A stretch of DNA of 63,835 nt, filler included, from Deltaproteobacteria bacterium (GCA_016283195.1; 6 parts of 6 records of this genome joined end to end with filler, not necessarily neighbours in it); one strand, 5' to 3'. Positions 14,451 to 61,449 are shown, counted from the first letter of the whole stretch. A program made the numbers and translations. The notes: a model not told the origin generated them from the letters alone.

Positions 14451-15659
14451 ATGAGGCTTATTATGAGTAATTTAGTAAAAATTTGTTTTGCTATGTCGGC
14501 CTTTGCTTTAATCTCTTGCGGTACCGAACAACCCACCGGTGAAGCGCAGGGGCAAAAAACCAGCAATAACAACCAACCACAACCCAAAACAACCTGCAAG
14601 CCCGGTTTTTATGGCCAGGATTGTAAGGCCTGCACCTGTCAAAACGGCACCTGTGATGATGGCATATCCGGCGATGGCAGCTGTTCTTGTGATGAAGATT
14701 GGATCGGCCAAAATTGTGACACAAAAATACTGTGCCGTCATGGTACTCTTGACCCGCAAACCGGGAATTGCCTGCCTGGGAGCTGTGAGGAGAAATACAA
14801 CGGTGAAAACTGTAATGAATGTAAAGACCAGCTCAAAACCGGGGAAAATTGCGATAAATGTCTAAATTCCCGTATGACCGGCGAGCGCTGTGACATAGAA
14901 ATTCTTTGTAAAAATGGTACTCTCGATACCCAAACCGGCCACTGTTTAAGCGATTCTTGTGATTCCAAATTCATCGGAACCGATTGTGACATAGAAATTC
15001 TTTGTAAAAATGGCACTCTCGATACCCAAACCGGCCATTGCCTAAATGGTAGCTGCGATAGCCTCTTCACCGGTGATGACTGTAATGAATGCGTATATGC
15101 ACCAATGACTGGACCAAAGTGTGACCAGTGCAAAAACAATAAGCTTGGCCCAAAATGCGATATAGATACAGTAAATATAAATGGCCAAACCTGGGCAGCT
15201 AAAAATATGTATGGCACTGTCAGCAATGATGGCAGCAATGTTACTTGCTATGCCAATACCAAGGAAGATAGTAATTTTGAAGCTAACTATGGTTGCCTAT
15301 ATATTTGGGAAGATGCCCAAAAAATGTGTCCAACCGGTTGGCATTTGCCTACAGAGACAGAGCTTAATAAACTGCTTACTTATGCGGGCGGAGCCCGCCC
15401 CACCGGGTCTCAAAATTTACGGGCCACCAGCTGGGAGAGCGGTGCCGATAAATATGGCTTTGGGGCCCTGCCCGCCGGCAAATACTACGGCAACGACAAC
15501 AGCTCCTTCTACGATGCGTTCGGGTCGTATGCCAATTTCTGGTCGCAGAGCGAGGACGATAGCGACAATGCGTTCCGTTTGTCCCTGAGTACCAGCTATG
15601 CGAGCGTGAATACCGCCGCTAAGAGGTACGGCTACTCGGTTCGCTGCATTAAAGACTAA
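14451..15659 (+). CDS. Lipoprotein with EGF-like Cys-rich repeats and a C-terminal FISUMP (Fib_succ_major) domain; candidate DGR target
   Basis: Lipobox-like ALISC; C-x-C...G-x-x-C repeats; INGQTWAAKNM, YGCLYIW, CPTGWHLPT, GFGALPAG, FWS, YSVRCIKD. Confidence 0.9.
   Translation: MRLIMSNLVKICFAMSAFALISCGTEQPTGEAQGQKTSNNNQPQPKTTCKPGFYGQDCKACTCQNGTCDDGISGDGSCSCDEDWIGQNCDTKILCRHGTLDPQTGNCLPGSCEEKYNGENCNECKDQLKTGENCDKCLNSRMTGERCDIEILCKNGTLDTQTGHCLSDSCDSKFIGTDCDIEILCKNGTLDTQTGHCLNGSCDSLFTGDDCNECVYAPMTGPKCDQCKNNKLGPKCDIDTVNINGQTWAAKNMYGTVSNDGSNVTCYANTKEDSNFEANYGCLYIWEDAQKMCPTGWHLPTETELNKLLTYAGGARPTGSQNLRATSWESGADKYGFGALPAGKYYGNDNSSFYDAFGSYANFWSQSEDDSDNAFRLSLSTSYASVNTAAKRYGYSVRCIKD
14889..15045 (+). 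repeat. Intragenic tandem repeat (96-bp period) encoding CDIEILCKNGTLDTQTGHCL
   Basis: Near-identical copies start at 14889 and 14985; a diverged third copy lies near 14715. Confidence 0.9.
15465..15659 (+). other. Putative DGR variable region
   Basis: After PAG-AAA none of the next 51 codons ends in A; variable-loop codons are NNC/NNT around fixed scaffold codons. Confidence 0.6.
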
Positions 15660-15710
15660 CCGTCCTCATTTGACCTCACCATGTTCATAAAAGAAATTAC
15701 ACCCAATCGT

Positions 15711-15731
15711 CCCTCCCCACAGTGGGGAGGG
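15711..15731. repeat. GC-rich palindrome (REP-like or terminator)
   Basis: CCCTCCCCA-CAG-TGGGGAGGG between convergent genes. Confidence 0.6.
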
Positions 15732-15918
15732 GCAAATTTACATGAATTTACAAATATTTTGTGGGGTGAGGTCTGGGTGGCGGCCAAGGCGGCTAGCCCC
15801 GGCTAAGCCAGCGCAAACAAAAGTAGCGGGGTTTCTCCACTAACAGAAAGAAGCAGCATAAAATCAAAGAGTATTATCTCAATAAACTGGCCTTGCAGTT
15901 AAGAAAAGATAGGGCCGC

Positions 15919-16467
15919 TTAAATAGTCAGCAAATTAAGCGCCCACTTGGCGAGTTCGCGCAAAGAGGCTTCATCGTTATCATCGACAGTTATAGTCCAG
16001 TGCCCCTCTTTGGCCAGTTCTTGCAACTTTTCCACCACATCCGGGGCCTGCGGAGCATCAAAAAACTCCTCCTCGCACCCGGCAGCAATCAGCATATCGC
16101 GCATATCACAGGCCAGAGCCGGCTTATATTTATCCTGGCTATCAACCAGGCGGCGAATATCGTCTTCATAGCTATCAATACCGAGGCGCAAAACTGCGAG
16201 TACTGCCCGCGCTTTTTCGGTGGGTGAATCGCTATCAAAGGCATCACTTATGGCAGCGCGCAGCTCATCTTCTTCCAAATGAAGAGCATCAAATGAACAG
16301 TTGACGGCATCCATAACAAAAATGGCCATATCGTCGATATCGGAATCTTTAAAATCATCAACAAATTGCAAAATGGCCATACCACATTCCGGCGGAAGGA
16401 GCGAAATTTCTTTAATTCCCAACATATTGTTACTCTCTTGCAGCTTTTGCCTAAGCGTCATTGCCAC
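15919..16467 (-). CDS. Hypothetical acidic helical protein
   Basis: 182-aa ORF filling the space, no recognised motif. Confidence 0.65.
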   Translation of the reverse strand: MAMTLRQKLQESNNMLGIKEISLLPPECGMAILQFVDDFKDSDIDDMAIFVMDAVNCSFDALHLEEDELRAAISDAFDSDSPTEKARAVLAVLRLGIDSYEDDIRRLVDSQDKYKPALACDMRDMLIAAGCEEEFFDAPQAPDVVEKLQELAKEGHWTITVDDNDEASLRELAKWALNLLTI

Positions 16468-16653
16468 GGCGAAAATCTTCTATCATCTTTATATAACTTG
16501 GTAAAGCCCAAGTAACATTTATATTTTATCACAAAAGTTTTCCAATCAGGCTCAACTTGGGTATTTACTTTTTAACATTTTGTTACAAATAATGTTAATC
16601 GGTGCTCATTCCTATGGCTCAATTCTGAGCCATACATTTTGGGGGAGTAAACA

Positions 16654-16878
16654 ATGCAACACAAAATATGTAAGTATTTTTGGGTAGGCTACGGGCTGGC
16701 ATTTTTATTAACCATTACGGCCTGTAAAAACGATCCCACCGCCGGTAAGACACCGGAAAAAGAGGGAGATGCCTGCTCGCAGGACAACAATTGCCCTACT
16801 CCGCTCATCTGCATAGAAAGTATTTGCCGCAAAGTTTGCGTTGCCGATAAAGACTGCGACAAAACCCAAGCTTGCAAA
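16654..16878 (+). CDS. Cys-rich lipoprotein (3' truncated at contig end)
   Basis: GGGGAG RBS; lipobox ITAC; CSQDNNCPTPLICIESICRKVCVADKDC. Confidence 0.75.
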
Positions 16879-16978: not shown

Positions 16979-18877
16979 CAAAGCCGAACTGCGCCCCTCT
17001 TGGCTAAGGTTGTAATAAACGCGGTTAAAAGTTTGATAAACAGCGCTGTCGGTATTGATGGAAACCCATTCCAAAGTATAGGCTAAATTGATGCGCCAAT
17101 AGTCATTAAGCCAATAGCCGAAGCCGGGGGAAATACCGGTGGATTCACGCTGAAAATAGTTGTAATATTCTTGAGTTGCATAGGCTTTGCCGGTCATTGA
17201 CCACATGGAATCCAAAAAGTACGGCTCGGAAAATTGCAAGCTAGCCAATTTGCGCCCGTAAGTGCCAAAAGAGAGCTGAGCTTGCAAAGAGAGATATTGG
17301 CCGCGGCCGAAGAGATTGTTTTGGGTGATTTGCCCGGTTAAGACAAAGCCTTCCAAGGTGCTGTAGCCGGCGCCGAGTTGGAAAGTGCCAGAGGGCTTTT
17401 CTTTAATAGTTACAATAACATCCACTACATTTGGCAGAGTTGAAGGCTGAGTGGTTATTTCCACTGTTTCAAAATAGCCAAGTTGATAAATGCGCGCTTT
17501 GGAGCGGTTTATGCCGGTGGCACTATATAGCTCGCCTTCGACAATGCGCATTTCGCGGCGGATGACTTTGTCACGCGTTACTGTGTTGCCAACAATATCG
17601 ATGCGCCCAAAATAGACGAGTGGCCCTTTTTCGATGGAAGTGTTGATGTCAACAGTTAAGTCTTCATGCGGGGTGCTCTCCGGCACGATGTTGGCATAGG
17701 CATAACCCTCGTCCTGATAGAGGGTGGTGATGCGCTGGATATTGTCAAAGAGCTTGCTGCGGTTAAATATTTCACCCTTTTTGACGGTGAGCATATTTTG
17801 CAAAATTTCCGGGCTGCTAACTACTTTGCCATCTTTATTTAGGAGATCCATCTCGCCGGAAAAAGTGAGCTCGCCCAGTGAGTACTGCGGCCCCTCTTCA
17901 ATGGCAATGCTGATGTAAAGCCTTGAAAAATCATTGGAAATAGTGACTTCCGGCGGGCTGATTTTTACCTGGATATAGCCGTGGTCGTAATAGAGCGCTT
18001 GCAGGCGGAGAATATCCATTTGCAAGTTTTCGTCTTTAAAAGTGCTGGTGCCCATGATGGCGCTTATTATATTGCTCTCGCGCGTTTGCATGGCTTTTTT
18101 GAGCTGTTTATCGGAGAGAGCTTCGTTGCCGATAAAAGTAATGGAGTGGATTTTAACTTCCTTGCGTTCTTCAATGTTAAAGACAATATCCACCATGGAG
18201 CCGTCGTCCGTGGGGGTAACCACACTGTTTACTTGCACCAGGTAATAGCCTTTTTCTACATAGGCAGCTTTGATTTTTTCTTCGTTGCGGCGCAGATCGG
18301 CGCGGTTTAAAACCGTAGCAATTTTGAGATCTATTTCTTCGTCTAAGTCGTCTTTATCTAATTTTTGGTTGCCCTCATAAGTGATGGTGCGGATAGTTGG
18401 GTGTTCAACTAGATAATAATAAAGGATAATTTCATCGCCGGAGAATGATATAAAAGCCGATACTTCTTTGAAAAAGCCCATGCGGTAAATAGTGCGGATA
18501 TCTTCGGAAACAGCCTCCGGGGAGAAAAAGTCGTTGGGTCTGACGCCTATTTTTACCAGCACGCTATCTATAGTGAGATAGCGCAGACCGCGGATTTTTA
18601 TCTCGGCAATGCGCTTTTGAGTTATCTTGGCTATAATGTCGGAATCATCAATAAAATCAACAGGCATTAGCCCTTTGGTGTCGGGCATTATGTCTTCGGC
18701 TGAGAGATCTCTCAAGGCAGCCCTGGTGGGCAAAGGAGACTCTTCCTCGCCTTCAAAGAGGTCGCCGCCATTTTCCCAATTGGCGCCATCCCCATACTGG
18801 GCTATTGCAACGCTTTGCCAGGTTGTAAATGTGGCAACCAAGCAAAATAAAAGAAGTTTTATATCATTCACGAGCAA
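16979..18877 (-). CDS. bamA: Outer membrane protein assembly factor BamA (3' truncated)
   Basis: Five POTRA repeats (e.g. GNTVTRDKVIRREMR), start of barrel GTFQLGAGYS, NNLFGRGQ, FSEPY. Confidence 0.96.
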
Positions 18878-19554
18878 AGCTCCACAAATTTTCCGTTTTC
18901 CAGCAAAAGCTGCCTTGGCATTGAAGCTGCCAAGGCGCGATTGTGGGTGACTAATATCAAAGTAATGTGATGACGTCTATTAAGATCGAACAATAAATCG
19001 TGAATTCCTTGTGCCGTTTTGTCATCTAAGTTGCCGGTGACTTCATCAGCCAGGAGCAGTGGCGGTTTCATTACCAGGGCGCGAGCCAAAGAAACGCGCT
19101 GTTGTTCGCCGCCGGAGAGCTCGCCCGGGCGGTGATCCAGACGGTGGCTCATATTTACTTCTTCCAAAACTTCGGCGGCCAGTTTTCTTGCTTCGGCCGG
19201 AGATTTGCGGGCGATGAGTGCCGGTAGCATGACATTTTCTATAGCGGTAAATTCCGGCAACAGATGGTGAAACTGAAAGACAAAGCCAATGTTTTTATTG
19301 CGTATTTCTGCAAGTTCTGCGCCGCTTAGATTAGTTAATTCATGGCCGGCTACGGTGATTGAGCCACTGTCCGGAGTGTCCAGAGTGCCCACCATGTGCA
19401 AAAATGTGCTCTTGCCGGCTCCGGAAGAGCCGATGATGGAGACCATCTCGCCGGCCGGGATTTCTAAATCAATGCCCTTTAAAACCTCTATTTCACGTTC
19501 TTCGAGGTAATATTTTTTATAAAGGTTTTTTATGGAAATCATAGGGTTATCCAT
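18868..19554 (-). CDS. lolD: Lipoprotein-releasing ABC transporter ATP-binding protein
   Basis: [35 protein letters not shown]; lies between lolE and bamA. Confidence 0.92.
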
Positions 19555-21406
19555 CGCGCAGACCCTCAACCGGATTATAGCGCTCAGCTAGCCTTGAGGG
19601 GAATACCGCAGCCAAAAAGGTGATAGCCAGGGCGCTTACGACAATGAGAACAACATCGAGAACTTCCAGATATACCGGTAGCTCGTCTATATAATAAACC
19701 TCGGGATCCAGCCAAACGCCGAAAGTTTTGGTGAGGTAGCAGAGGGTAATGCCCAGGAGCGTGCCTAATAGTGTGCCCAGCGCTCCAATGATAAGCCCCT
19801 GAAAAACAAAAACTTTCATCACTGTTAGGTCGCTGGCGCCCATTGATTTTAAGAGAGCGATGGCCTGGCCCTTTTCCATTACCGACATAGTGAGTGTGTT
19901 GATGATGGAAAAACTGGCCACCAGCACGATAAAAATGAGCACCACAAAGGTAACCACTTTTTCCAGTTCCACACTGGCGAGGAGCGCTTCGTTTTTGCGT
20001 TTCCAATCGTGGATGCGGTGGGGATAGCCGCCCAGAGTTTTGAGCACAGTCGGCGCTATGCGCTCGGTATCTCTAGCCTCTTTAAGGCGGATACCGATGC
20101 CGCTCACAGTCTCCGGAGTATCAAAAAAAGCCTGCGCGGTGCTAAGCGGTATATACATGAATTTAGAGTCGTATTCATACATACGGCTATTGAAAATCCC
20201 GCCTACGACAAAAGAGCGGCTCTTGGGAATGGGGCCAATTGGTGAGAGCTCTTCGTGGATGGGGGAAACTATGCGGATGGTGTCGCCGATGTCGGCGGAG
20301 AGGATGCGCATAAGTTCGGTGCCGATGAGAATTTTAGTCGGTGTGGTATCGGCAATAGTTATGCCGGGCAGGGGGCTCTTTTGTTGCTTTTTCTCTCCTT
20401 GGTAATCTGGGTCTAAAAAGTCGCAATCGCCAAGCTCAACGTGGTCAAAAATATTAATAACTTTGGCAGCTTCGTTTTTGCGGACTCCAAAGAGCATGGC
20501 TCCAGCCAGATTGGTGTCGCTGGCTACCATCACTTCGCCCATGAGGTATGGGTAAGCGGCTACTACTTGATCTAACGCCTCGACATCTTTAACTTTTTCG
20601 TCGTAGTCAGTTATTTGATAGCCCTCATAGGTGGAGGCAGTGAGGTGGGCATTGGCGCCAATCATTTTTTCAATCATATCGCGTTCGAAACCTGAGAGCA
20701 CACCAATGCTGACAATCATCAGGGCGACGCCCAAAGTAACGCCGAAAATAGAAATAAAAGTGACAGTTGAAAGAGCCGCAGTTTTTTTTGCTCGCACAAA
20801 TCTCCAGGCAATGAGCCGCTCTACATAGGTGGAATTATTGGCATTTTTTTCGCCGGTGAAAAGATAGGTGAGGCAGGCAGCCACCTCCAGAATGAGGCCG
20901 CCGGCAAGAGGTGCGGCCACCAAAAAGCGCAGTTCCGGCGAAGCAATACCCACCAGATAATAGCGCGGATAAAAGACAGCTATAGCTATTTCAGTGGCGA
21001 TAAAAAGAGCCGCCAGCAGTGAAAATGGCGAGAGTTTTTTGGCTCTAAATGTGGGCCAAAAGCCGGAGATGGCACAGGAAAAGGCAATGCCCAGCCAGGC
21101 TATGGCGCTATGGCGGGCTATGGTGCCGCCCAGCAAAATAAATGCCGCGAGGAAAAGGCCGTTTAAAAGCACCAGCATGGTGGCGGTCCAGGCGGTTAGT
21201 TTAGGCGAAAGGGCGCTTTGCCTAATATTAAGAGCCTCTTTGGACCGCTGCTTCTTAAGGAGGCGCGCTATAAAAAAGATTAGAAAATCGAGCCCACAAA
21301 AGGCGCAAAAGAGAATAAGGCTGAAAAGACGGGCATCTTTAGCCAGCTCTTCGGGAGTTGGACCGGCGAGGTGAAAAAGGGCAGCAATGTGACTAAATGT
21401 AAGCAC
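19547..21406 (-). CDS. lolE: Lipoprotein-releasing ABC transporter permease (LolC/E) with an extra N-terminal membrane domain
   Basis: ISIFGVTLGVALMIVSIGVLSGFE, IALLKSMGAS, YYIDELP, PVEGLR; GGAGA RBS before GTG 21406 (ORF extends to 21505). Confidence 0.9.
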   Translation of the reverse strand: MLTFSHIAALFHLAGPTPEELAKDARLFSLILFCAFCGLDFLIFFIARLLKKQRSKEALNIRQSALSPKLTAWTATMLVLLNGLFLAAFILLGGTIARHSAIAWLGIAFSCAISGFWPTFRAKKLSPFSLLAALFIATEIAIAVFYPRYYLVGIASPELRFLVAAPLAGGLILEVAACLTYLFTGEKNANNSTYVERLIAWRFVRAKKTAALSTVTFISIFGVTLGVALMIVSIGVLSGFERDMIEKMIGANAHLTASTYEGYQITDYDEKVKDVEALDQVVAAYPYLMGEVMVASDTNLAGAMLFGVRKNEAAKVINIFDHVELGDCDFLDPDYQGEKKQQKSPLPGITIADTTPTKILIGTELMRILSADIGDTIRIVSPIHEELSPIGPIPKSRSFVVGGIFNSRMYEYDSKFMYIPLSTAQAFFDTPETVSGIGIRLKEARDTERIAPTVLKTLGGYPHRIHDWKRKNEALLASVELEKVVTFVVLIFIVLVASFSIINTLTMSVMEKGQAIALLKSMGASDLTVMKVFVFQGLIIGALGTLLGTLLGITLCYLTKTFGVWLDPEVYYIDELPVYLEVLDVVLIVVSALAITFLAAVFPSRLAERYNPVEGLRDG

Positions 21407-21626
21407 CGATTCTCCGCTTTGCGGCCTCAAAAAAGCCCGGTAAAATCTAAAAAATTTATTTTTAAGCCCAACTGGCTGGTGGTTAAACACCCAAAAAAGC
21501 TCCACCGGCCCAAAAGTGCGCGGGGAACGGGCGACTATTTAGCACTATGGCACCTTATTTTTCAAGGCTTCATTGGTTTTTTATGTGTGAAAAAAACAGA
21601 GATGTAAGGAGCCACATTTTGGCGCC

Positions 21627-23144
21627 TTAGTTCACCGGCTTCATGGTGGGGAACAAAATAACATCGCGGATGGAGGCGTTATTGGTTAAGAGCATAATCA
21701 GCCGGTCTATGCCGATGCCGCAACCGCCGGTTGGTGGCAGGCCGTATTCCAGAGCGCGCACATAGTCATAATCGCACTCGTGGGCCTCTTCGTCGCCAGC
21801 CGCTTTTTGGGCCACCTGCTCCTCAAAGCGGGCCAGCTGGTCGGCCGGGTCGTTGAGCTCGCTAAAGGCATTGGCCAATTCGTGGCCAGTGACATAGAGC
21901 TCAAAGCGCTCCACCAGGCGCGGGTCGCTCTCTTTTTTGCGCGAAAGCGGCGAGACATCTTTGGGAAAATCCATGATAAATGTTGGATTTACCAGCTTTT
22001 CTTCGCATGAAGCTTCAAAAATGGCCGCCACCAGCTTGCCGTGAGTCACCACTTTTTCTTCTATGCCCAGGCGCCCAGCCACCGCTTTGGCTACCTCAAA
22101 GTCATCAAAAACATTTTCTTCTATGCCGCCGATTTCGCGGATGGCCTCAGCCATGGTGAGGCGCTTCCACGGGCGAGCCAGCGAGACGCGCTTATCGCCA
22201 TAAGGCAAATAGCGCACGCCGTCTTCCACTTCGCCCAGGTTAAGATTATCGGCCACAGTACAAATGAGGTCTTCCACCAGATCCATGAGTTTTATGTAAT
22301 TGCTATAGGCTTCGTAAAACTCAATAGTGGTAAATTCGGGATTGTGAGTGGTGTCCATGCCCTCGTTGCGGAAGCAGCGGTTAAGCTCAAAAACGCGGTC
22401 AAAGCCGCCCACTACCAGGCGCTTTAAATAGAGCTCCGGGGCAATGCGCATATAAAGCGGAATATCAAGAGCGTTGTGGTGCGTTTTAAAGGGGCGGGCT
22501 GCCGCGCCGCCGGCCATGGTGTGCATCATCGGCGTTTCCACCTCGATATAGCCCTTATCTTCCATAAAGCGGCGCACCTCACTCACAATTTTGGAGCGCA
22601 GCATGAGCGTTTTGCGCGATTCTTCATTGACCACCAGGTCAACATAGCGCTGGCGATAGCGGGCTTCCGGGTCGCTAAAGGCATCAAAAGTCTGGCCGTC
22701 TTTGCGCTTTACCACTGGCAACGGGCGGATGGCTTTAGAGAGCAGGCGGAAGGAGTCGGCGTGAATGGTGAGTTCGCCGGTTTTACTCTTCATCAAGTAG
22801 CCGCTAAGGCCAATAATATCGCCAAGATCGGAGAGCTTAAAGACGCCAAATTCTTTCTCGGTAAGGTCGTTTTTGCTCACATAGGCCTGGATGCGCCCAG
22901 TGCGATCCTGAATACGCAAAAAGGCCGCTTTGCCAAAGGAATTTAGAGCCATAATGCGCCCGGCAACAGCTACCACAATGTGTTTTTCCCTAAGCTCTTC
23001 GCCATCTTCCGCGCCGTACTTAGCCGCAATTTCGCTGGCTAGAGCATTTGGCTCAAAATCATTGGGGTAAAACTTTTCGCCGAGGGCCAGGGCGGAGGCC
23101 AATTTCTCTTTTCTTACCGCTATTTGCTCGCTAACTTCTTCCAT
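21627..23144 (-). CDS. lysS: Lysine--tRNA ligase (class II)
   Basis: RYRQRYVDL, GGAAARPF, LRIAPEL-like YMRIAPELYLKRL, HNPEFT, GLPPTGGCGIGIDRL. Confidence 0.98.
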   Translation of the reverse strand: MEEVSEQIAVRKEKLASALALGEKFYPNDFEPNALASEIAAKYGAEDGEELREKHIVVAVAGRIMALNSFGKAAFLRIQDRTGRIQAYVSKNDLTEKEFGVFKLSDLGDIIGLSGYLMKSKTGELTIHADSFRLLSKAIRPLPVVKRKDGQTFDAFSDPEARYRQRYVDLVVNEESRKTLMLRSKIVSEVRRFMEDKGYIEVETPMMHTMAGGAAARPFKTHHNALDIPLYMRIAPELYLKRLVVGGFDRVFELNRCFRNEGMDTTHNPEFTTIEFYEAYSNYIKLMDLVEDLICTVADNLNLGEVEDGVRYLPYGDKRVSLARPWKRLTMAEAIREIGGIEENVFDDFEVAKAVAGRLGIEEKVVTHGKLVAAIFEASCEEKLVNPTFIMDFPKDVSPLSRKKESDPRLVERFELYVTGHELANAFSELNDPADQLARFEEQVAQKAAGDEEAHECDYDYVRALEYGLPPTGGCGIGIDRLIMLLTNNASIRDVILFPTMKPVN

Positions 23145-23213
23145 AATAACCTCTTATTGCTATTGATGCATCCGCCGACAGTGCCAAACGGAGCAGGCGC
23201 TTTATATGCCTTT

Positions 23214-23427
23214 TGCGGCGGAAAGACAAGGGGGGAGCGCTTGGCCTTTTTGCGCCATCATCTCCCGGCACTCTCTGCCTGCGGCGCCCTCACCCCACAG
23301 GTAGTGGAAATTATGGCATATCACCCTCTCCATTTTTACAAATAGAGAGGGCTCATCTTGTTGAATTTTCACATATTTTGTTGAGTGAGGTGCAACGGAA
23401 GTAGCGGAGGTTTTCCCCAAAAAAGAA
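23214..23427 (-). repeat. Intergenic repeat-family copy (MITE/REP-like)
   Basis: Reverse complement of 23402-23427 equals 60451-60476 (26 nt exact); rc of 23214-23225 equals 60508-60519; rc of 23288-23299 equals 15760-15771. Confidence 0.75.
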
Positions 23428-23444
23428 AGGTATAAATCTAACTC

Positions 23445-23978: not shown

Positions 23979-24102
23979 GGCGATTTCCTCATTTCTTTTG
24001 TGTAACCATTTGCCGTTATTGAGTAAATAAATAACAGCACTACCCAGCATATTGGAGATGGCTACTTGGTGTCAAGTCACTAGAATTTTAGAGTATTTTA
24101 GC

Positions 24103-25646: not shown

Positions 25647-25655
25647 AAAATTCCT

Positions 25656-48186: not shown

Positions 48187-48225
48187 AATATCTTTATCGG
48201 AAATAGTGTTTCCGGAGAATTTTCT

Positions 48226-49254: not shown

Positions 49255-49271
49255 GAGGGTGCTTACTGTTT

Positions 49272-52607: not shown

Positions 52608-52610
52608 GCG

Positions 52611-54239
52611 ATGTCTCTCTTTGCCCGTCTTTTGCGTATTCGCTGGCCGCTCTTTTTTGCTGTCCTGGCCGTTTGCCTGCTCGGCATATATAATTTGGAA
52701 TCGGCAGCCCGCAGCACCAATCCCGATCTTTACCTCACTCAGCTTCTTTGGCTGGGGCTCGGCGTTGTTACCGCGCTCTCGTGCGCGCTCATAAATTACC
52801 GCTTTACCCGTTATTTTGCTTACTTTATTTATGGGGTTATCTCTTTTTTACTGGTACTCACCCTGGTAAAGGGCACGCCCATTAACGGTGCTAGGCGCTG
52901 GATTAATTTAGGCTTTATGAATCTGCAAGCCTCAGAGCTCATGAAAGTTGCTATAATTATTACTCTTGCGCATTATTTAAGCCAGCATTGGGTGGGCAAA
53001 AAAATGACGCTTAGAGAGCTTTTAAGGCCTTTAAATATCTCCCGCCCTCTAGCCATCACCGCTATCATTATTTTTAAACTAAAAGCCCCCTTTATGCTGG
53101 ATCCTTTGGGCGAACTAGCGCGGCTCACGCGTAAAAAACTGGCTGCCCCCCCTGTCCCGGCCGAATTTTTGTGGTTTAGAATAACAATTATTTTAATAAT
53201 AACCGCTATTTTAGTTACTTTTATCATCTTGCGCATACTCTCGGCCAGGCGCCCTGATTTGGTAAACCCGGTGAGTAAATCGGCTGTGCGTTTGCAAATT
53301 ATCTCGGCCTCTTTTATAGCCCTTGGCCTCTCTTTATATATTGTTTTCACCAAAAGCGCCTTTATCCGCGACCCGGTAGCCTATATTTTAGCTACATTTT
53401 ACCGTGAAAGCGGGCCCGGCGGAGTTTACGAACAATTTACTCCACACTACTGGCTACCTGTAATTCTCTTTTTATTATCCGCTATTTACCTCATTTTATG
53501 CCTTCTTTTAATCAGAGCCCGAGGCTGGCAAACCCAGCGCGACCTCATCGCTCCCATAGATATTATCGGCCTGCCGGCGCTGCTCATTCTTGTTGAGCCT
53601 GATTTGGGCACCACCCTCATTTATTTGGCTATTGCCGGCACTATGTTGCTCTATTCCGGCGTCAACAGGCGTTCTCTCGCCATCTTGTTTATTGCCATGG
53701 TCTTTGGCGCCGGTATTGCCTGGATGGGCATATTAAAGGATTACCAACGTCAACGCATCACCACTTTTTTGGACCCCGAGCAGGATGCCAAGGGCTCCGG
53801 CTACCACTCCATCCAATCACTGATTGCCGTGGGCTCCGGCAAACTTTTTGGCAAGGGGCATGGTGGGGGAACCCAAACACAGCTGCGTTTTTTGCCGGAG
53901 CAGCACACCGATTTTGCCTTTAGCGTCTGGGCCGAAGAAATGGGCTTTATGGGCTGCCTTTTGCTGCTTTTTTGCTATGCTCTTTTAATAGCTCTTTTGC
54001 TCTGGACCGCCTACAAAGCCGCCGATGCCTATGGCAGCCTGCTCTGTGTGGGCACCACCGCCTTCATTTTCTGGCACATGGTGATAAATATCGGCATGGT
54101 CACCGGCCTCCTGCCCGTTGTCGGTGTAACTTTACCCTTTTTTAGCTACGGCGGCTCATCGCTCGTCACTCTCTGGCTAACTATTGGCCTCACTCTCTCC
54201 GTATCCATCCCGGAGCGTTTCTTCGACGGCGCGCAGTAA
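52611..54239 (+). CDS. rodA: SEDS peptidoglycan glycosyltransferase RodA with a large internal insertion
   Basis: GARRWI, QASELMK, EPDLGT, YQRQRI, GSGYH, LPEQHTDF, GVTLPFFSYGGSS. Confidence 0.95.
   Translation: MSLFARLLRIRWPLFFAVLAVCLLGIYNLESAARSTNPDLYLTQLLWLGLGVVTALSCALINYRFTRYFAYFIYGVISFLLVLTLVKGTPINGARRWINLGFMNLQASELMKVAIIITLAHYLSQHWVGKKMTLRELLRPLNISRPLAITAIIIFKLKAPFMLDPLGELARLTRKKLAAPPVPAEFLWFRITIILIITAILVTFIILRILSARRPDLVNPVSKSAVRLQIISASFIALGLSLYIVFTKSAFIRDPVAYILATFYRESGPGGVYEQFTPHYWLPVILFLLSAIYLILCLLLIRARGWQTQRDLIAPIDIIGLPALLILVEPDLGTTLIYLAIAGTMLLYSGVNRRSLAILFIAMVFGAGIAWMGILKDYQRQRITTFLDPEQDAKGSGYHSIQSLIAVGSGKLFGKGHGGGTQTQLRFLPEQHTDFAFSVWAEEMGFMGCLLLLFCYALLIALLLWTAYKAADAYGSLLCVGTTAFIFWHMVINIGMVTGLLPVVGVTLPFFSYGGSSLVTLWLTIGLTLSVSIPERFFDGAQ
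54201..54238 (+). repeat. Direct repeat copy 1 (att-like; 3' end of rodA)
   Basis: GTATCCATCCCGGAGCGTTTCTTCGACGGCGCGCAGTA is identical to 55556-55593. Confidence 0.95.
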
Positions 54240-54326
54240 TTTTCTAATCTGACTTCTTTTCGACCAAAGATTAATTAGCGAGACGTGTCCAAAAATTAAT
54301 TGGTTGTCACAACCCAAAAATTTTCC

Positions 54327-54355
54327 TTGACTTTTGGCTAATTGCTCCGCATGAT
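54327..54355 (+). promoter_or_regulatory. Candidate sigma-70 promoter inside the islet
   Basis: TTGACT-17nt-CATGAT; AAGGAG RBS before 54420. Confidence 0.45.
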
Positions 54356-54419
54356 ACCACTTAATTCCTTAAAGCTGGTGCCTAAAGTGCCGAGCTATTT
54401 TGTCTAAAGGAGAGAAAAG

Positions 54420-55034
54420 ATGGCAAAACGAAGTCGAAGGCTAATTTGTGGGCTCTTAGCACTACTGTGGTTTTTAGTGCCACACAGTGCAGATGCGCGA
54501 ATCGTTATCAACGAGGTTATGGGCAAGCCGCTTCATCAAAGTACCGCCGGGCGTTATGAATTTATTGAACTTTATAATAGCGGCAATGCTGTAGTTGATA
54601 TAAGTGGCTACATTCTGACGGATTCTGCCGATTATGCCGATATGTGCAGCGACCCTTTACCAACCAGCACAGCAGATCACGAGGGCTTTTTCATCATTCC
54701 AAGTGGTACTTACATCGGAGCTAATGACTATCTAACCCTATGGCACACAGCTATTCCCGGAGTAACGGACAACAATAAGAGTGTTGTTTACTCCGGTGCC
54801 AACGTTGCCAGTATTGTTATTAACGACCATGGTGATGATCTTCATATCCTACGTTGCCAGAATGGCACACCAGTGGTGGTTGATGAGTTTGTTTTTTCTT
54901 TTGATTTCAACCCTAATATTTCTTTAGAAAGGGTATCAGCCGATGATTCCAGCAATAATATGTCAAACTGGTATGAATCAATAAAATTCACTGAAGAAGA
55001 TACTGAAGGAGCAACCGATTACATAAGAGGATGA
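54420..55034 (+). CDS. Secreted lamin-tail-domain (LTD) protein, possibly truncated
   Basis: Signal peptide (SADA), IVINEVM, EFIELYNSG..VDISGY.LTD, NDHGD, SLER. Confidence 0.8.
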   Translation: MAKRSRRLICGLLALLWFLVPHSADARIVINEVMGKPLHQSTAGRYEFIELYNSGNAVVDISGYILTDSADYADMCSDPLPTSTADHEGFFIIPSGTYIGANDYLTLWHTAIPGVTDNNKSVVYSGANVASIVINDHGDDLHILRCQNGTPVVVDEFVFSFDFNPNISLERVSADDSSNNMSNWYESIKFTEEDTEGATDYIRG

Positions 55035-55453
55035 GTAGCAATATTTTGAAAATACTTTGTGGGAGTATTCTCATTTGTTTCGGTACAATTACTTCTTGTT
55101 GCAGCACAGAAGAATGTGGTGCTATGCCCATAATGATTTGTATTTCAACAATCGATGCGCAGAATGTACCTTTCAAAACTTATTTGCGAAACGAAGAAGG
55201 CCTGATTTTAACAGAAAACTCACCAATCCAATTTTCTAATGGCCGATATTCAAATTGCACTACAATGTCATGGAGAAATGATGGGTCCTACGAATTAAAA
55301 GTAGAAAGTAATGGCTACAAGCCATATATTGGACAAGTGGAGGTGGTTCATGATTACTGTGGACGCCCTCTTACCAATATATATCAAATTGTACTAGACA
55401 AAGAAAACCAGTCTATTCAACAGTCGCATATTCAAAAGGATAATTGCTTATAG
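55031..55453 (+). CDS. Hypothetical lipoprotein-like protein
   Basis: Hydrophobic N-terminus ending ITSCC; ATGA overlap with the LTD gene; GSYELKVESNGY beta-sandwich-like motif. Confidence 0.65.
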   Translation: MSSNILKILCGSILICFGTITSCCSTEECGAMPIMICISTIDAQNVPFKTYLRNEEGLILTENSPIQFSNGRYSNCTTMSWRNDGSYELKVESNGYKPYIGQVEVVHDYCGRPLTNIYQIVLDKENQSIQQSHIQKDNCL

Positions 55454-55555
55454 CCCCTGCTGTCCTACACCTTTCGTAACAATCAAAGCACCATAGTTTC
55501 AATAAAGCAGGATATCTGAGAGATTCATGCTCCTAAAAGGACTAACATCCTCTCT

Positions 55556-55593
55556 GTATCCATCCCGGAGCGTTTCTTCGACGGCGCGCAGTA
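55556..55593 (+). repeat. Direct repeat copy 2 (att-like)
   Basis: Identical to 54201-54238; extends to 44 bp with one mismatch. Confidence 0.95.
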
Positions 55594-55713
55594 GAAAGCA
55601 CCAACAACTTTCTTGCCAAACCAAATTCATTTTGCTATCGTTCCGCCAGCCTGCCCGAGAGACTGATGGCTGGTCTCGTCGGCGCCGGGCAATCACCAAT
55701 TATGGAGGTTTTC

Positions 55714-56480
55714 ATGTTGAGTCACGATGGAAGCAAAAGAACCACAAACGCTAAATTACTGAGCTGGGTTGATGAAATGGCCGCCCTTTGCGAGCCGGAT
55801 GCCATTTACTGGTGCGACGGTTCCGAAGAAGAAGCGCAAAGATTATACGATGAGCAAGTTAAAAAAGGCTCTTTTATTAAATTAAACGAAGAAAAACGCC
55901 CAGGTTGCTACCTCGTGCGCTCCCATCCCAGTGACGTGGCCCGCGTGGAAAAACGCACTTTCATCTGCACCAAAACCAAAGAGGGCGCCGGCCCCACCAA
56001 TAACTGGGTTGACCCGGACGAAATGCGCGCCACTCTTAAAAAATGCTTCAAAGGCTCCATGCACGGCCGCACCATGTATATCATTCCATTCTGCATGGGC
56101 CCCTTGGGTGCCGATGCTGCCCAAATCGGCGTGGAAATTACCGATTCTCCTTATGTTGTGCTCAATATGCGCATTATGACCCGCATGGGCCAAAAAGTGC
56201 TCGATGTTCTTGGCGATAAGTTCTTTGTGCCCTGTATGCACTCTGTGGGTTACCCCTTGGATAACCGCCCCGATAAACCTTGGCCCTGTGCCGAAAATGT
56301 CGATGACAAATATATCGTCCAGTTCCCCGAAACTTATGAAATCTGGTCCTTTGGTTCAGGCTACGGCGGCAACGCCCTCTTAGGTAAAAAATGCTTTGCT
56401 CTGCGCATCGGTTCCGCTATGGCCCGCGATCAGGGCTGGCTGGCTGAGCACATGCTCATCCTCGATGTGGAAGATCCCAA
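55714..56480 (+). CDS. pckG: Phosphoenolpyruvate carboxykinase (GTP), 3' truncated
   Basis: [56 protein letters not shown]. Confidence 0.97.
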
Positions 56481-56580: not shown

Positions 56581-56903
56581 AAGGCTTTTCAGGAAAGAAT
56601 TGCGAGGACTGTGCCGAGGGCTATTATGGTTCGTCCTGCACCAAGTGCCCGGTTTGTAACAAAGAAAATGAATGCAATGGCACGTGTAAATCCGGTAAAA
56701 CCGGTGAAGGCCTAGTCTGCGATTGGGGTTATGAGTTAAGCACTGGTTGCACCACCTGCCAAAATGGGTTTAAGTTTTTTACTCCAGAGCCTGGATATCC
56801 TCGCATGTGTTTGATTCCATGCAATTCTAATGCCAATTGTCCAGCTGGTGTAGAATGCTATGACCCGCCGAACCCCAGCTACTGTATGAAGTACCATGAA
56901 TGA
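56581..56903 (+). CDS. C-terminal fragment of an EGF/laminin-like Cys-rich protein (not in the ORF track)
   Basis: Frame from 56583: GFSGKNCEDCAEGYYGSSCTKCPVC...CLIPCNSNANCPAGVECYDPPNPSYCMKYHE-stop. Confidence 0.8.
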
Positions 56904-57174
56904 TAATCATTCCCCCACCAATTCAATCCAGGAAATATAAGCTGAGCCCTCCCCGAAACTGCGGTGGCTAGTGGTGGTCAGCTGACTAATAGCTCTACCC
57001 TGTTCACTAAGGCGCCACTGCGCCCCACTTGAGCCTATTGGTGGAGCTTTTTAATCTGCACAAAAACCTGGGGCGGAAAGAGTGAAAATGTGCTATAATG
57101 CGCGGCGGAGTTGTCTGCGCCTGAAAGCCGGCCGGCTCTAAAAGGTAAGCCAATTTAATATTACGGAGTAACGC

Positions 57175-58356
57175 ATGGAATTTCTTCACGAAAAGCTGAG
57201 CAATTTAAAAACCAAAGTACAAAATAACGAGCCTGTCACCATTATGATTATCGGCCTGGGCAGCGTGGGTACTTTTTTGCTGGATTTTCTTATAAGCCTC
57301 GCTGATCCGCAGCTTAAAATAGTTGTGGCCGGCCGTAATGCGGCCAAAATGCAGATGGATGTGAATATTGTGCGCACAGCCGCTGCCATCCGCCGTGAGC
57401 TGCGGAGCCCGGTGGAGATCATCGGCGACTGCGATTTAAACGATGTGGCCAGCGTGGCCAAGGCCATTAAAAAAGCCAGCCCCGACTTTATCGTCAATAG
57501 TAGCCGCGTCTATTCCGGCCTGAAATACGGCAGCATTTCCTGGAGCAATTTGCGGGCTTATGGCATTTGGTCGCCTCTTGCCATCCGCTATGCCAAAAAT
57601 ATCATGGCCGCCTATAAAGAGGCCGGCAGTAAAGCCATAACCATCAACACCTCCTATTCCGATGCCGTTATTCCCTGGCTCAAAGCGGCAGGAAAGCCCT
57701 ATTTTGATTTTGGTAGCGGCAATTTAAATCACCTCATTCCGCGCATGAAGTTTTTTATGGCCGCTAAATATGGCATCAATAATTTAAACGATATTGATGT
57801 CACTCTGGCTGTCAGCCATTTTCATGATGTGGTTATCTCCAAAGAGGGCCAGGCCGAAGGGCAAAAATTACTGCTTAATTTCAAACATAACGGCAAAGAT
57901 CTGCCCTTTAATCAGGATGAGCTCTTAAAAGCCTGCGCTATTCCCATGCCCACCGACCAAAAGCGCAACATGATGAACGCTTCCAGCAATTTTGATATAA
58001 TTACGGCTATTTTAACGGCTCTTCGCGAGAACAAAGTGACCAAAATTCATGCCCCGGGCGCCTTTGGCGAAATTGGCGGCTATCCGGTTTTAATTGACGG
58101 CAATTTCGCCAAAGCCTCTTTTGATACCGCACTCTTTAGCCTGGAAGAGATGCGCAAAGCCAACCGTAAATCCATTTATCTGGACGGCATAGAGAATGTG
58201 GAAAGCGGCACTCTCACCTATACCGATGAGCTTTTGGCTAAAGTTAAAAAGGCCTTTAATGTGGAGCTTCCCAAGAAGGTCGCCTTTGAAGACATCGAAA
58301 AAACCGCCGATTTTATTATAAAAAATATTATAGAGCCCTTTGCGCCACAGAAATAA
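57175..58356 (+). CDS. NAD(P)-binding Rossmann-fold protein (saccharopine dehydrogenase-like)
   Basis: IMIIGLGSVG glycine motif, VVAGRN, APGAFGEIGGYPV; TGCTATAAT upstream. Confidence 0.7.
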   Translation: MEFLHEKLSNLKTKVQNNEPVTIMIIGLGSVGTFLLDFLISLADPQLKIVVAGRNAAKMQMDVNIVRTAAAIRRELRSPVEIIGDCDLNDVASVAKAIKKASPDFIVNSSRVYSGLKYGSISWSNLRAYGIWSPLAIRYAKNIMAAYKEAGSKAITINTSYSDAVIPWLKAAGKPYFDFGSGNLNHLIPRMKFFMAAKYGINNLNDIDVTLAVSHFHDVVISKEGQAEGQKLLLNFKHNGKDLPFNQDELLKACAIPMPTDQKRNMMNASSNFDIITAILTALRENKVTKIHAPGAFGEIGGYPVLIDGNFAKASFDTALFSLEEMRKANRKSIYLDGIENVESGTLTYTDELLAKVKKAFNVELPKKVAFEDIEKTADFIIKNIIEPFAPQK

Positions 58357-58379
58357 AACCCAAGCTTTTAATTAAAAAT

Positions 58380-59279
58380 TTACCAGCCGAGGAATTCTTT
58401 ATAAGGAATATCCGGCTCCAAAATATATTGCCCGTGATGCTGGCCGCGTTCTTCTACAGGCGGAAAGGCCATATAGTCGCCGTAAGTTTTAGTAAGAATA
58501 TTCCGGTAGCCGGCAGGAATAGGGAATTTGTATCCGGCAAATTCGCCTTCTACGGCACTGGCAAAATCAGCGGCCTCCCAGGTGTTTATTTGGAGCGGCT
58601 CGGCAGTAAAGAGCATGATGGCCACTTTATCTGTTTCGCGGTTATTGTACATTGTGGCCAGGCGCTGTATTTCCTCAAAATCTTTTATATGATCGCGATG
58701 ATATGCCGCCACCCGCTGCCTGTTTTTTTCGTTTAGTTCCGGATTGGTCAGGCGCATGAAGGTGCCGTTTTCGATATTCAGGCGGTTTATTTGTTCATAG
58801 CGCTCAAGGGCGCCGGCGGCCACAAAATTGTCTAAGGGGAAAATGTCGATAAATAGGCCCTGGTTCATTTTTTGGTACTTAATAATGGGGCTTATAGCGC
58901 TGGTATTGGAATTGCGCAGGCGCGCATAGGAGGCAGCGTAGTTGCTGTCAGTGTAGGGGGTTTGCAAGAATATGGGCTCGCGGAATTCGTCTTTAAGCTT
59001 GATGAATTTTTCGTAATCCGCACGCGGCATGGCAATATCGGCATCGTCATCCCAGGGAATGAAACTTTTATGGCGAATTGCCCCAAGCAGCGTCCCCGAG
59101 ATGAGAAAGTAGCGCAGGTGGTGCTTTTGGCAGACTCTGTCCAGTTGCAGCAAGAGGTCCAGTTCGACAGCCCAGATTTTTTTCCTCTGCTCGGTAACAT
59201 GAAACTCGCAGAGAATTTCTTCTTTTAAAAAATCCGGCGGGATGGTGCCTTCTGCCACTATTCTTTCGGGTTCGGTCAT
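58380..59279 (-). CDS. LicD-family phosphotransferase
   Basis: GTLLGAIRHKSFIPWDDDADI, IDIFPLD, YGDYMAFPP. Confidence 0.93.
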   Translation of the reverse strand: MTEPERIVAEGTIPPDFLKEEILCEFHVTEQRKKIWAVELDLLLQLDRVCQKHHLRYFLISGTLLGAIRHKSFIPWDDDADIAMPRADYEKFIKLKDEFREPIFLQTPYTDSNYAASYARLRNSNTSAISPIIKYQKMNQGLFIDIFPLDNFVAAGALERYEQINRLNIENGTFMRLTNPELNEKNRQRVAAYHRDHIKDFEEIQRLATMYNNRETDKVAIMLFTAEPLQINTWEAADFASAVEGEFAGYKFPIPAGYRNILTKTYGDYMAFPPVEERGQHHGQYILEPDIPYKEFLGW

Positions 59280-59287
59280 GGCCTTAG

Positions 59288-59387: not shown

Positions 59388-60268
59388 AAACGCTATGGAA
59401 AGACTTTAATAAGTGGTTTCTTTCCGGCACTCTGGATATTTTAAAAGCGGTGCTAAGCATCATGGATAAAGTAGCTAAGATGTTACCACCGAAAGATGAT
59501 AGCTCTGAAGAAGCTCGTAAGTTCCGCTGGCAACGTGAAGAGTTTTTAACCAAAATAGCCAGGAAGGCCATTAAAGAAAATAATCCGCAACTACTAAGTC
59601 TTATTGTAAATAATACAAAATTTGACATAAATGCACTGGATAACCATGGTTATGACTCTGCTGGTCACTTTTTGGAGCGAGCTATTAGGTCTAATGAAAC
59701 TGAGATAGCCAAAATACTTATTAAAGCCGGTATAAAAACTAATGTATCCTATCTGCGTAATGAACATAGCCCACTTATGTGGGCGGCAAGTCGTGATGAA
59801 GCAGAAATAGTTAAAGCGCTCTTAGAAGCCGGCGCCGATCCCGATTATCACCCAGAATTCAATAATGATAAAATAGAAAATGGTGATGTGTATAATAGCC
59901 CTACACCACTGATGTTGGCCGCGAGAAACGGTGCCAGCGAATCGGCCAGCCTGCTGATAGAAGCCGGCGCCGATATAAATAAAGAAGATTTATTTGGCGT
60001 AACTCCGCTGATGAAGGCTTTGGTGCGCGGCTATACTTCTATAGTTCGCCTCCTCATCAAAGCGGGGGTAAACCCCAACCAGCGCCTTAATGAGTTTGGG
60101 GTAACTCCGCTGATGGTGGCCAGCGCTTTTAATTATCAGGATATGGTCAAAATGCTGCTTGAAGAGGGGGCAGATGCCAATATAGCTAATAAATTCGGGA
60201 AGAAAGCGCGGGATATTGCCAAAGATGAGGAGATGAAAAAGATACTGAGCGGCGGCAGAGGAAAATAA
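59388..60268 (+). CDS. Ankyrin-repeat protein (5' truncated)
   Basis: SPLMWAA, TPLMLAA, GVTPLMKA, GVTPLMVA, LL.AGAD repeats; frame open back to the contig start. Confidence 0.92.
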
Positions 60269-60450
60269 GACAGCGGGTCGCACATATTTGTCGGCTCCTT
60301 CCCTTCACTAAGCATTGGATTATACGCTTTCATAATGTCTTTGTCACCTTCCGGCGGCCCGCTCAACAGTAATTAGTGAAAATAGCGGTCTCCTTTTTCT
60401 TAGCTGTTATGCCAGTTTCTTCCCGCTACTAATTCTTGATTTTATTCTTA

Positions 60451-60840
60451 TTCTTTTTTGGGGAAAACCTCCGCTAATTTCGAAGCGCTCAGGTTTTCCC
60501 CAAACCCCTTTCCGCCGCACGACAAAGGGACACCCTTGGAACCCGAACGTTCAATGAAAATGGCTTTGTTTATGATATGTTACAAAATTGGTCACTTCTG
60601 GTGTGCCTTAAAAGCCAGAGGCCCCACTTGAGATCGGGTATGGATAGCCTGCCTCTGGCTTAGGCGGGGCTGCGCCCCGGCACCCCGCTAGGGCTCAGTT
60701 GTCAAATACCATTCGGATCGCGATCCGCCTTACGGCGGAATAGTTTTGGCCGGCGGCCGCTGCGGCTGCGCCGCTGGCTGGCCTCCGGCTTAAGCCTCCT
60801 GCTACGCTGGGGGCTGTTCGCCTGGCGCTTCGCGCCTGGC
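60451..60840. repeat. Dense array of GC-rich palindromes (REP/MITE-like)
   Basis: 14-bp IR 60457-60470/60491-60504; 11-bp IR 60612-60622/60651-60661; GGGGC-TGC-GCCCC; TCCGCC-TTAC-GGCGGA; 60820-60840 hairpin. Confidence 0.8.
60820..60840 (-). other. Putative DGR target-recognition hairpin
   Basis: Minus strand GCC-A-GGCGC-GAA-GCGCC-A-GGC immediately after the TGA of the FISUMP gene. Confidence 0.6.
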
Positions 60841-61045
60841 TCACGGAGAGTCCTTGAGGCAACGCACGGAAAAAGCGTAATTCTTGACGTCGATGCCTAC
60901 ACCCGCATAGCCATCACCCAAGATCAGGCGGCAGGCGTCGTGGCTACTGCCCTCGCGCTCCGTGGCCGACCAGAAGTAGGCGTAGTAACCGAAACGGTAG
61001 TAATCGCCACCGTAGTAGCGGCCGGCGGGAAGCGCCGAAAAGCCA
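60841..61045 (-). other. Putative DGR variable region
   Basis: Abrupt switch from A-rich to A-poor sequence; 38 of 48 codons after PAG end in C/T and only one in A. Confidence 0.72.
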
Positions 61046-61449
61046 AAATCATTTTCCGCTTCATTTTTTGCTTCTAGCCAGTGTGGTGATTTGGCTGCCA
61101 GAGCTAAAAAGTTATTTTGACTAGTGCGATTAAGTTCCACATATTTTAAAAGTTTTTCAAAATCTGTCATTGTTGGCAAATGCCAACCGGCCGGGCAGAC
61201 TTTTAAAGCATTTTCCCATGAATACAAGAAGCCATACATTTTGTCGTTTTCATTATCACCATCAGCGGACCAATGGGGTAAACCCTTAAAAGCCATATTT
61301 TCGGCCATCCAGGTTTGATTGCCGATTTTTACTGTTCGGTAAACATGGCCATCACGTGTATCGGTAAAAGAGCCGTATTGCTGGGCAAAAGCTGTTGCCG
61401 GAGTGACTAATAAAAGAGAAAAAGCAAATAATTTAAAAAGATTGTTCAT
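60841..61449 (-). CDS. Secreted single-domain FISUMP protein; candidate DGR target
   Basis: Signal peptide (ATAFA), FTDTRDGHVYRTVKIGNQTWMAEN, YGFLYSW, CPAGWHLPT, GFSALPAG, FWSAT, FSVRCLKD; GGAGG RBS before ATG 61449. Confidence 0.93.
   Translation of the reverse strand: MNNLFKLFAFSLLLVTPATAFAQQYGSFTDTRDGHVYRTVKIGNQTWMAENMAFKGLPHWSADGDNENDKMYGFLYSWENALKVCPAGWHLPTMTDFEKLLKYVELNRTSQNNFLALAAKSPHWLEAKNEAENDFGFSALPAGRYYGGDYYRFGYYAYFWSATEREGSSHDACRLILGDGYAGVGIDVKNYAFSVRCLKDSP

Follow-up and report, generated by a model that had tools for sequence, protein, structure and literature searches.

The window analysed in this work is a stretch of 63,835 nucleotides, filler included, from Deltaproteobacteria bacterium (GCA_016283195.1), in which six contigs are joined by N spacers (1-11260, 11361-16878, 16979-36916, 37017-56480, 56581-59287 and 59388-63835). 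It holds three genes, here called g1, g2 and g3, for proteins with the Fib_succ_major domain (FISUMP; TIGR02145), and the 3' ends of two of them, g1 and g3, resemble the variable regions (VRs) that are written by diversity-generating retroelements (DGRs), a known kind of bacterial protein diversifier. In the Pfam scan, PF09603 (Fib_succ_major) scored above its curated cut-off of 33.9 bits in three of the 51 open reading frame (ORF) translations of the window, with 93.5 bits in g1 (E-value 2.5e-26), 175 bits over two domains in g2 (2.6e-51) and 106.2 bits in g3 (3.2e-30). The genes sit on contigs 2, 4 and 6 (Table 1) and their neighbours, an MrfA-type helicase, SpoU/CysRS and an ankyrin protein, are unrelated; the scan thus bears out the original prediction, made from the DNA alone, that three FISUMP genes lie on three different contigs, each inserted singly among unrelated genes. 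In the protein database, g1 appears as P0130 with 398 aa, its start being 12 bases further in, and g3 as P0010 with 202 aa and a start at 61449. Signal-peptide and lipobox assignments are eye readings of the N-termini only, made with no prediction tool; read in this way, the N-terminus of g1 resembles a lipoprotein signal, with a lipobox-like stretch and a Cys after ...ALIS.

Table 1. Coordinates of the three FISUMP genes, of the segments at their 3' ends and of the template and variable regions of a verified retroelement (VR, variable region; TR, template repeat; positions of L095 are those of its own viral contig)
Feature	Position	Strand	Description
g1	14451-15659	+	402 aa; EGF-like repeats and one C-terminal Fib_succ_major domain (Pfam)
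g1 VR-like core	15480-15635	+	52 codons, 1 A-ending; third positions C27 G14 T10 A1
g1 constant 3' end	15636-15659	+	SVRCIKD plus stop
g2	44396-46198	+	600 aa; EGF repeats and two Fib_succ_major domains of ordinary codon usage
g3	60841-61476	-	211 aa; short FISUMP protein, read as secreted from its N-terminus
g3 VR core	60871-61020	-	50 codons, 1 A-ending
g3 constant 3' end	60841-60870	-	SVRCLKDSP plus stop
g3 inverted repeat	60820-60840	-	GC-rich, GAA loop, 9-bp arms with one mismatch, directly behind the stop
L095 VR	4279-4481		end of FISUMP-type gene
L095 TR	5472-5674		about 18 of 19 mismatches at template adenines (printed as 0.95)

Codon signature of the 3' segments

A-ending codons were counted between the PAG motif and SVRC and compared with the upstream part of the same gene. 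As shown by these counts, such codons are nearly lost from the 3' segment of g1 (1/52 against 72/335 upstream, p 1.2e-4) and from that of g3 (1/50 against 44/144, p 4e-6), whereas the two domains of g2 (16/69 in the first and 13/54 in the second) do not differ significantly from the rest of their gene. The GC content of third codon positions (GC3) climbs in parallel, to 0.79 in g1 (0.42 before the segment) and to 0.74 in g3 (0.34 before it). Amino-acid composition was considered as the cause of this signature and rejected, since the depletion persists when the count is restricted to residues able to take an A-ending codon (Y, N, D, F, C and H have none), with 1/24 against 72/204 in g1 (p 7e-4) and 1/28 against 44/92 in g3 (p 5e-6), the values of g2 (13/35 and 16/48) being again not significant. 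The gene g2 is therefore an internal negative control, as the original prediction had proposed, and in our reading it is not a target. The counts given there of 1/52 and 13/54 were reproduced, the denominator of 48 given for g3 became 50 on recounting, and the 3' scaffold codons quoted for both segments are as written. Over the whole window, 63 of the 16868 spans of 50 codons contain at most one A-ending codon, and these fall in g3 (23), g1 (19), a RodA/FtsW gene (18), mreB (2) and cysS (1). Because the RodA/FtsW gene (52611-54239, + strand) also holds 18 such overlapping spans, the low-A statistic alone is unusual but not specific to DGR cassettes.

A dispersed family of g3-type cassettes

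A metagenome collection was scanned with an 18-base seed taken unaltered from the FWSATE codons of the g3 cassette. The seed matched 71 loci, most of them by chance, and nine of these are g3-like FISUMP ends (L263, L200, L213, L217, L224, L233, L246, L248 and L255). Of these nine, L263 is the window's own sixth contig, L200, L213, L217, L224, L233, L246 and L255 come from the same assembly series as it, and L248 comes from a sister series; L236 and L259, which have a more distant SVRC-type end and are alike over only 64-67 nt, were excluded. Seven cassettes were aligned codon by codon, L248 having been dropped as identical to L200 and the divergent L213 kept apart. In the cassette, 28, 29 and 10 of 50 sites are variable at codon positions 1, 2 and 3, respectively, against 80, 72 and 93 of 97 in the upstream 110 codons of the same genes, and the mean pairwise DNA identity is 0.77 in the cassette against 0.52 upstream. 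Codons of invariant residues show synonymous change in only 2 of 15 cases in the cassette, compared with 12 of 13 upstream. Because the seed itself forces six identical codons, a recount free of it was made, which gave variable sites of 28, 29 and 10 of 44, synonymous change in 2 of 10 codons (p 7e-4 against upstream) and a mean third-position identity of 0.90 in the cassette. At the variable cassette sites the base counts are A 186, G 122, T 96 and C 59, and the template implied by the family would be rich in AAC and AAT codons.

Since the gene bodies are saturated and are followed by a 3' block with frozen synonymous sites, in which variation falls on the first two positions of NNC/NNT codons, a DGR-type origin is suggested for these segments, as originally predicted. 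The pattern is the one expected of adenine-specific mutagenic retrohoming from one template, and not of gene conversion or ordinary divergence, and we consider it very probable that the g3 cassette was written by a DGR. Where the other six members do not vary (118 sites), g3 shows three private differences of non-A type, and this low count is a sign of recent writing. The constant end of g3 is identical codon for codon in L263, L200/L248 and L233, and by its position it would be similar to an initiation of mutagenic homing (IMH) sequence.

The genes that carry these cassettes are diverse in architecture and in surroundings, their neighbours including KilA-N/PIN, Psd/UppS, ROK and HydF genes. 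EGF-type repeats were found by Pfam in L233, and P0027 and P0030, which combine EGF and FISUMP domains according to precomputed Pfam assignments, share the g3 scaffold at the protein level; the EGF-repeat stalks proposed earlier for some of the receptors are thus seen in some of the siblings too. On L246 (1899-3287, - strand), a 463-aa protein carries TIR_2 at its N-terminus and, at its C-terminus, a FISUMP domain that closes with a g3-type cassette; a YhgA-like transposase adjoins it. This protein could be a sensor-effector fusion.

The fold of g3 was modelled on 78 homologues with a predicted local distance difference test (pLDDT) score of 90.7, and an earlier model from a shallow alignment (pLDDT 55.7) was discarded. 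The closest structure is TvpA (2y3c), itself a DGR variable protein (Z 10.7, root-mean-square deviation 3.8, 157 residues aligned), followed by Lcl-C (Z 9.4), TaqVP (Z 8.7) and Mtd (Z 7.8), with Bd2740-C also high. Foldseek with the same model returned only Lcl-C (E 2.9e-3), and a sequence-profile search of the PDB gave no match. In the model, the VR of g3 is predicted to lie in a C-terminal C-type-lectin-like (CLec) fold.

The signature among other FISUMP genes and in a verified retroelement

For comparison, 11 viral and 79 species-genome FISUMP loci were collected, and 95 domain ends from 68 sources were scored. A rise in GC3 is common at FISUMP ends (median +0.14), and the codon signature reaches p <1e-3 in 14 of the 95, among which g3 ranks second and g1 ninth. 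A pair of template repeat (TR) and VR is present in two of the 11 viral loci, and the A-mismatch scan found no such pair within 10 kb of any of the 79 species-genome loci. The viral contig L095 is a verified DGR, with a TR/VR pair of 203 nt (Table 1) and a reverse transcriptase (RT) ORF after the TR; its VR runs from GF.(A/V)(L/F)PAG to SVR, which is exactly the A-poor stretch in g1 and g3. Close relatives of the L095 RT (57-96% identity) occur in four of the five genomes with the strongest-signature FISUMP genes, namely the Fibrobacter bins G002-G005, and none was found in the fifth, the Bacteroidetes bin G001. In two of the four RT-bearing bins, a signature FISUMP gene on another contig aligns to the AAC-rich TR: L114 (G002, with L186) over 191 nt, with 31 of 40 mismatches at template A, and L123 (G003, with L187) over 189 nt, with 30 of 48. 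Remote FISUMP targets seem to be common in the Fibrobacter phylum. At the DNA level, both cassettes of the window have matches of about 60-76% to VR/TR segments of distant organisms, and no such matches were found for the two domain ends of g2. The signature enriches for DGR-type cassettes, including remote ones, and is no proof of a live template. On L098 (9074-12534) of G001 lie three tandem FISUMP genes, two of which share a cassette with 73% identity and mixed mismatches; they may be an orphan or relic cassette family.

These comparisons bear on the possibility that no retroelement took part, and that the cassettes were shaped by conversion between paralogous genes, combined with diversifying selection at the protein surface. 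The many paralogous FISUMP genes, among which recombination could spread a 3' block, would favour such a process. Nevertheless, conversion would homogenise all sites, whereas here positions 1-2 of NNC/NNT codons vary, with A as the commonest base and with synonymous sites frozen. In addition, L095 has its proven VR in this very segment, which in G002 and G003 can be aligned to the TRs. An origin by conversion and selection is hence extremely improbable in our view.

The g1 cassette and the exchange of cassettes between genes

The cassette of g1 is 0.57 identical to the g3 family, and at the sites that are invariant in this family it agrees in 17/21, 16/20 and 23/38 cases at codon positions 1, 2 and 3, respectively. 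It also differs from the g3 type in length and in its constant 3' codons. A single template for g1 and g3 was rejected on these grounds, that is, the agreement at only 23 of 38 third positions, the length and the 3' codons, and the earlier statement that one template is unlikely to serve both is upheld. The idea that g1 is a decayed relic of the g3 type is likewise unlikely, on a weak test in which one A was found among 15 changed third positions. Judging from its scaffold, whether g1 might be served by a second template is a question on which we are evenly divided.

Two mosaics were found among these genes. The body of g1 matches the L217 gene with 75% DNA identity as far as base 15490, which is ten bases past the start of the VR core, and the L217 cassette is g3-type despite the g1-like body. 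P0011 is identical to g3 at 102 of 105 positions within residues 22-126 and at only 18 of 48 in the cassette, where it has indels and a third scaffold that is common to P0029. These g1/L217 and g3/P0011 mosaics show cassettes and gene bodies moving independently, which fits the presence of several templates in the lineage.

An alternative explanation is that one genome has only one template, g3 and its siblings being real targets and g1 having an ordinary C-terminus, whose bias came, for example, from an old transfer from a GC-richer donor. It is in line with the singleton status of g1, its ninth rank among the 95 ends and its lack of an adjacent inverted repeat, with the milder GC3 rise that is common at FISUMP ends (14 of the 95 reach p <1e-3), and with the same third-position A depletion arising by chance or composition in the RodA stretch. 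On the other hand, the g1 signature holds on A-capable codons, its segment begins at the same PAG boundary, it has DNA similarity to VR/TR segments where g2 has none, and the L217 mosaic indicates that a g1-type body accepts cassettes. We therefore regard an ordinary C-terminus in g1 as improbable.

Proposed mechanism and the search for the retroelement

Our findings suggest, with reasonable probability, that the tip of g3 is written by a DGR from a template shared with its siblings, that g1 is written via a second template, and that the machinery acts in trans. In this mechanism, a template repeat located elsewhere would be transcribed and then copied into cDNA, random bases being inserted opposite its adenines, and this cDNA would replace the 3' cassette of g3 (its last ~50 codons). 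The same or a nearly identical template would also have supplied the cassettes of six or more further FISUMP genes, which are scattered over other contigs, are unrelated apart from the cassette and differ in target architecture (plain, EGF-stalked and TIR-fused). The g1 cassette, of the same kind on another scaffold, would most simply derive from a second template, and the RT, Avd and template(s) would act from outside the window. Three parts of this scheme are inferred, namely the persistence of an active element, the membership of the siblings in a single genome and a template dedicated to g1; a live DGR in the host genome is, on balance, somewhat favoured.

Several observations weigh against this mechanism. 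As the original prediction had stated for RT, Avd and TR, none of them was found in the window: no reverse-transcriptase family was detected in its 51 ORFs by Pfam, no Avd-like family in the same ORFs, including two small ones beside g3 examined at E up to 0.1, and no TR by the A-mismatch scan or by the low-stringency BLAST search for non-coding copies that the prediction had proposed. None of the 71 metagenome loci with the seed is a template-like copy, and this absence counts, since a template bearing the seed would be expected among the matches if it were in the collection. By blastn, both cassettes are without a match in phages and plasmids. Within the family, some differences go beyond the adenines of one template, such as C/T at third positions; the private non-A changes number 0-8 per member, with 8 in L224; and the cassettes of L200 and L248, which represent one gene in two assemblies, do not differ at all. 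The only link of the siblings to one genome is the presence of shared intergenic repeats (89-97%, or 81-97% with three weaker stretches), and they may belong to related genomes instead of one. No g1-scaffold sibling was found among 245 fetched proteins. In G001, a strong-signature gene occurs without TR or DGR-type RT, no template being found there and RT matches only at or below 31%. As for the 3' ends, no GC-rich inverted repeat stands directly behind the stop of g1, and none of the GAA-loop type stands behind the siblings of g3.

The inverted repeat of g3 has the same place and the same GAA loop as the one behind the L095 VR, and L114 has one too. Among the FISUMP ends, such GAA-loop-type repeats were found at 4 of the 14 with a strong signature and at none of the 72 remaining ones, a count that is weakened by a criterion set after looking, and the fold z-score of the g3 hairpin is only -1.4; this evidence carries little weight. 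Behind g1, folding gives a stem-loop of 11 bp (8 bp when read by eye), which starts 50 nt past the stop.

Further searches gave the same outcome. No RT was found in 30 ORFs flanking the g3 siblings; the g3 seed had no match in the viral collection and 61 in species genomes, none of them template-like, with L302, L313 and L269 (40-97 nt) as the only wider matches; and tblastn of g3 against phages returned two unannotated records at 30% identity. The seed of g1 had no match in the viral collection, the metagenome scan having been made with the g3 seed only. The template locus may be unassembled or absent. The L255 contig stops partway through the cassette, and the L200 contig opens partway through the FISUMP gene; repeats break short-read assemblies at such points, and contig breaks at cassettes may explain why the template locus was not recovered. 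Five public sequencing runs hold part of the contig (shares 0.05-0.17), and in four runs the exact-match pieces are of 113-246 nt at depth 2-4, too thin to bear on variation or habitat; reads of the g3 cassette are only short partial pieces, possibly from paralogues.

It could thus be argued that the cassettes are fixed relics of a DGR that acted at an earlier time or in a donor genome, with RT and template now gone or dead and ordinary coding evolution acting since. This agrees with the absence of RT, TR and Avd from the window, the seed scans, the phages and the plasmids, with the identical L200/L248 cassettes, the members with private non-A changes and the signature genes of G001, and also with L118 and L147 from the other two RT-bearing bins, in which signature and RT are present in the genome and no TR match was seen. 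However, the high third-position identity of the cassette (0.90) next to saturated gene bodies implies that the last writing was recent, A-ending codons have not returned to the segments of g1 and g3, and the absence of the machinery is judged from part of the genome only. Relics are for these reasons rather unlikely, and we retain the trans-acting DGR as the preferred explanation.

As a whole, the system-level picture drawn by the original prediction, a dispersed multi-template DGR network diversifying FISUMP surface receptors, stands in part. The adenine-type cassette family and its remote FISUMP targets are supported, including the dispersal of the g3 family; its machinery was not seen, the multi-template character is inferred with g1 as a singleton cassette, and the recognition role is speculative. 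In its widest form, one uncultured, Myxococcota-like gut bacterium would possess a trans DGR network with at least three templates (the g3 type, the g1 type and that of P0011, a nearly identical orthologue of g3) and at least nine scattered FISUMP receptors, which we consider doubtful. If true, this set of dispersed hypervariable receptors would rank with the largest known in a single cell, swapping cassettes between bodies and including EGF-stalked lipoproteins and a TIR-fused form. Recognition of prey or host as its function is speculation.

Host lineage and other features of the window

The best match of MreB has 69% identity and comes from Myxococcota genome bins, and no relative of the methionyl-tRNA synthetase above 35% identity was found; the host is, on these two results, a member of a poorly sampled lineage. 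Besides the EGF repeats, the window encodes other eukaryote-like domains, in a Stig1-like cysteine-rich protein (37019-37645, - strand), a lamin-tail-domain protein (54420-55034, + strand) and an ankyrin-repeat protein (59450-60268, + strand).

A dispersed intergenic repeat of ~90 nt occurs on three contigs, at 15820-15907 (+), 23349-23436 (+) and 60395-60480 (-), each copy following the 3' end of a gene that is encoded on the other strand; an Rfam scan of the window gave no match, this repeat included. The intergenic stretches 15664-15776, 33922-34407 and 60278-60708 recur at 73-97% on L200, L217, L224, L233 and L246, and 60451-60708 recurs at 89% behind the L200 gene. The non-coding region behind g3 (60270-60840, ~570 nt) is unusually GC-rich, with repeated CTAAGCC-type motifs.

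Comparison with known systems

The DGR, its CLec2/FISUMP targets, its action in trans and the presence of several templates per genome are already described, and what is less usual here is that some FISUMP targets are EGF-stalked or TIR-fused and that the dispersed family is so large. The excerpts of the literature on which this comparison draws support the claim that Fib_succ_major domains are known DGR targets and that targets can lie far from the RT, FISUMP/DUF1566 targets and remote targets both being in print (PMC5758913; PMC4159848). In the survey of Wu et al. (2018, PMC5758913), as far as excerpted, Fib_succ_major/DUF1566 (also DUF823) targets form category 'd' (CLec2), with 14% of 372 DGRs and the Legionella lipoprotein LdtA as an example; non-adjacent targets are recorded for 45 DGRs, with seven in Treponema, and 23% of DGRs show non-A substitutions and 34% have inverted repeats. 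Several DGRs per genome, with targets written in trans and TIR-bearing targets, are reported in the consulted part of the work on Thiohalocapsa (bioRxiv 10.1101/2023.09.22.558884). Metagenome surveys of DGRs look for a VR beside the RT and, in the portion seen of Roux et al. (2021, PMC8144416), admit missing remote targets. In the small part of the literature covered here, no report joining DGR with 'EGF-like' was found, which is no proof of absence.

A codon signature within the gene could flag orphan DGR targets at scale, a short scaffold seed then retrieving the cassette family, whose variation pattern betrays the retroelement even without an RT. For the host, our findings suggest that variable lectin tips are borne by a whole set of proteins, some secreted, some lipid-anchored and some perhaps with a signalling role (TIR).

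Compared with the CLec2/LdtA group, as it is described in the excerpts, the genes of the window have a likewise C-terminal putative VR in a Fib_succ_major/Lcl_C-like CLec domain, a predicted lipoprotein or secreted nature and a constant 3' end, sometimes with an inverted repeat; they differ in that RT and TR are unseen in the window, that the targets stand singly among housekeeping genes and that some have EGF-like stalks. The TvpA DGR of Treponema denticola, in its available description, likewise has one template and many non-adjacent targets, and TvpA is the best structural match of g3, although it is of the FGE-sulfatase type with 12% identity to g3, and its RT and TR are known. Thiohalocapsa PB-PSB1 shares with our proposal the several templates, the trans targets, the TIR-bearing targets and the idea of an 'antigen sensor' repertoire, but the excerpted account deals mostly with cytoplasmic STAND/MoxR-linked sensors with proven in-situ variation, whereas here the putative targets are mostly secreted FISUMP proteins. 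Finally, L095 and the Fibrobacter bins G002-G005 are set apart by their scaffold (FWSSTE or FWTATE instead of FWSATE), by a DNA identity of ~60-76% to the cassettes of the window and by the host lineage, and they have in common with the window the same domain, the same VR span and remote FISUMP targets on other contigs.

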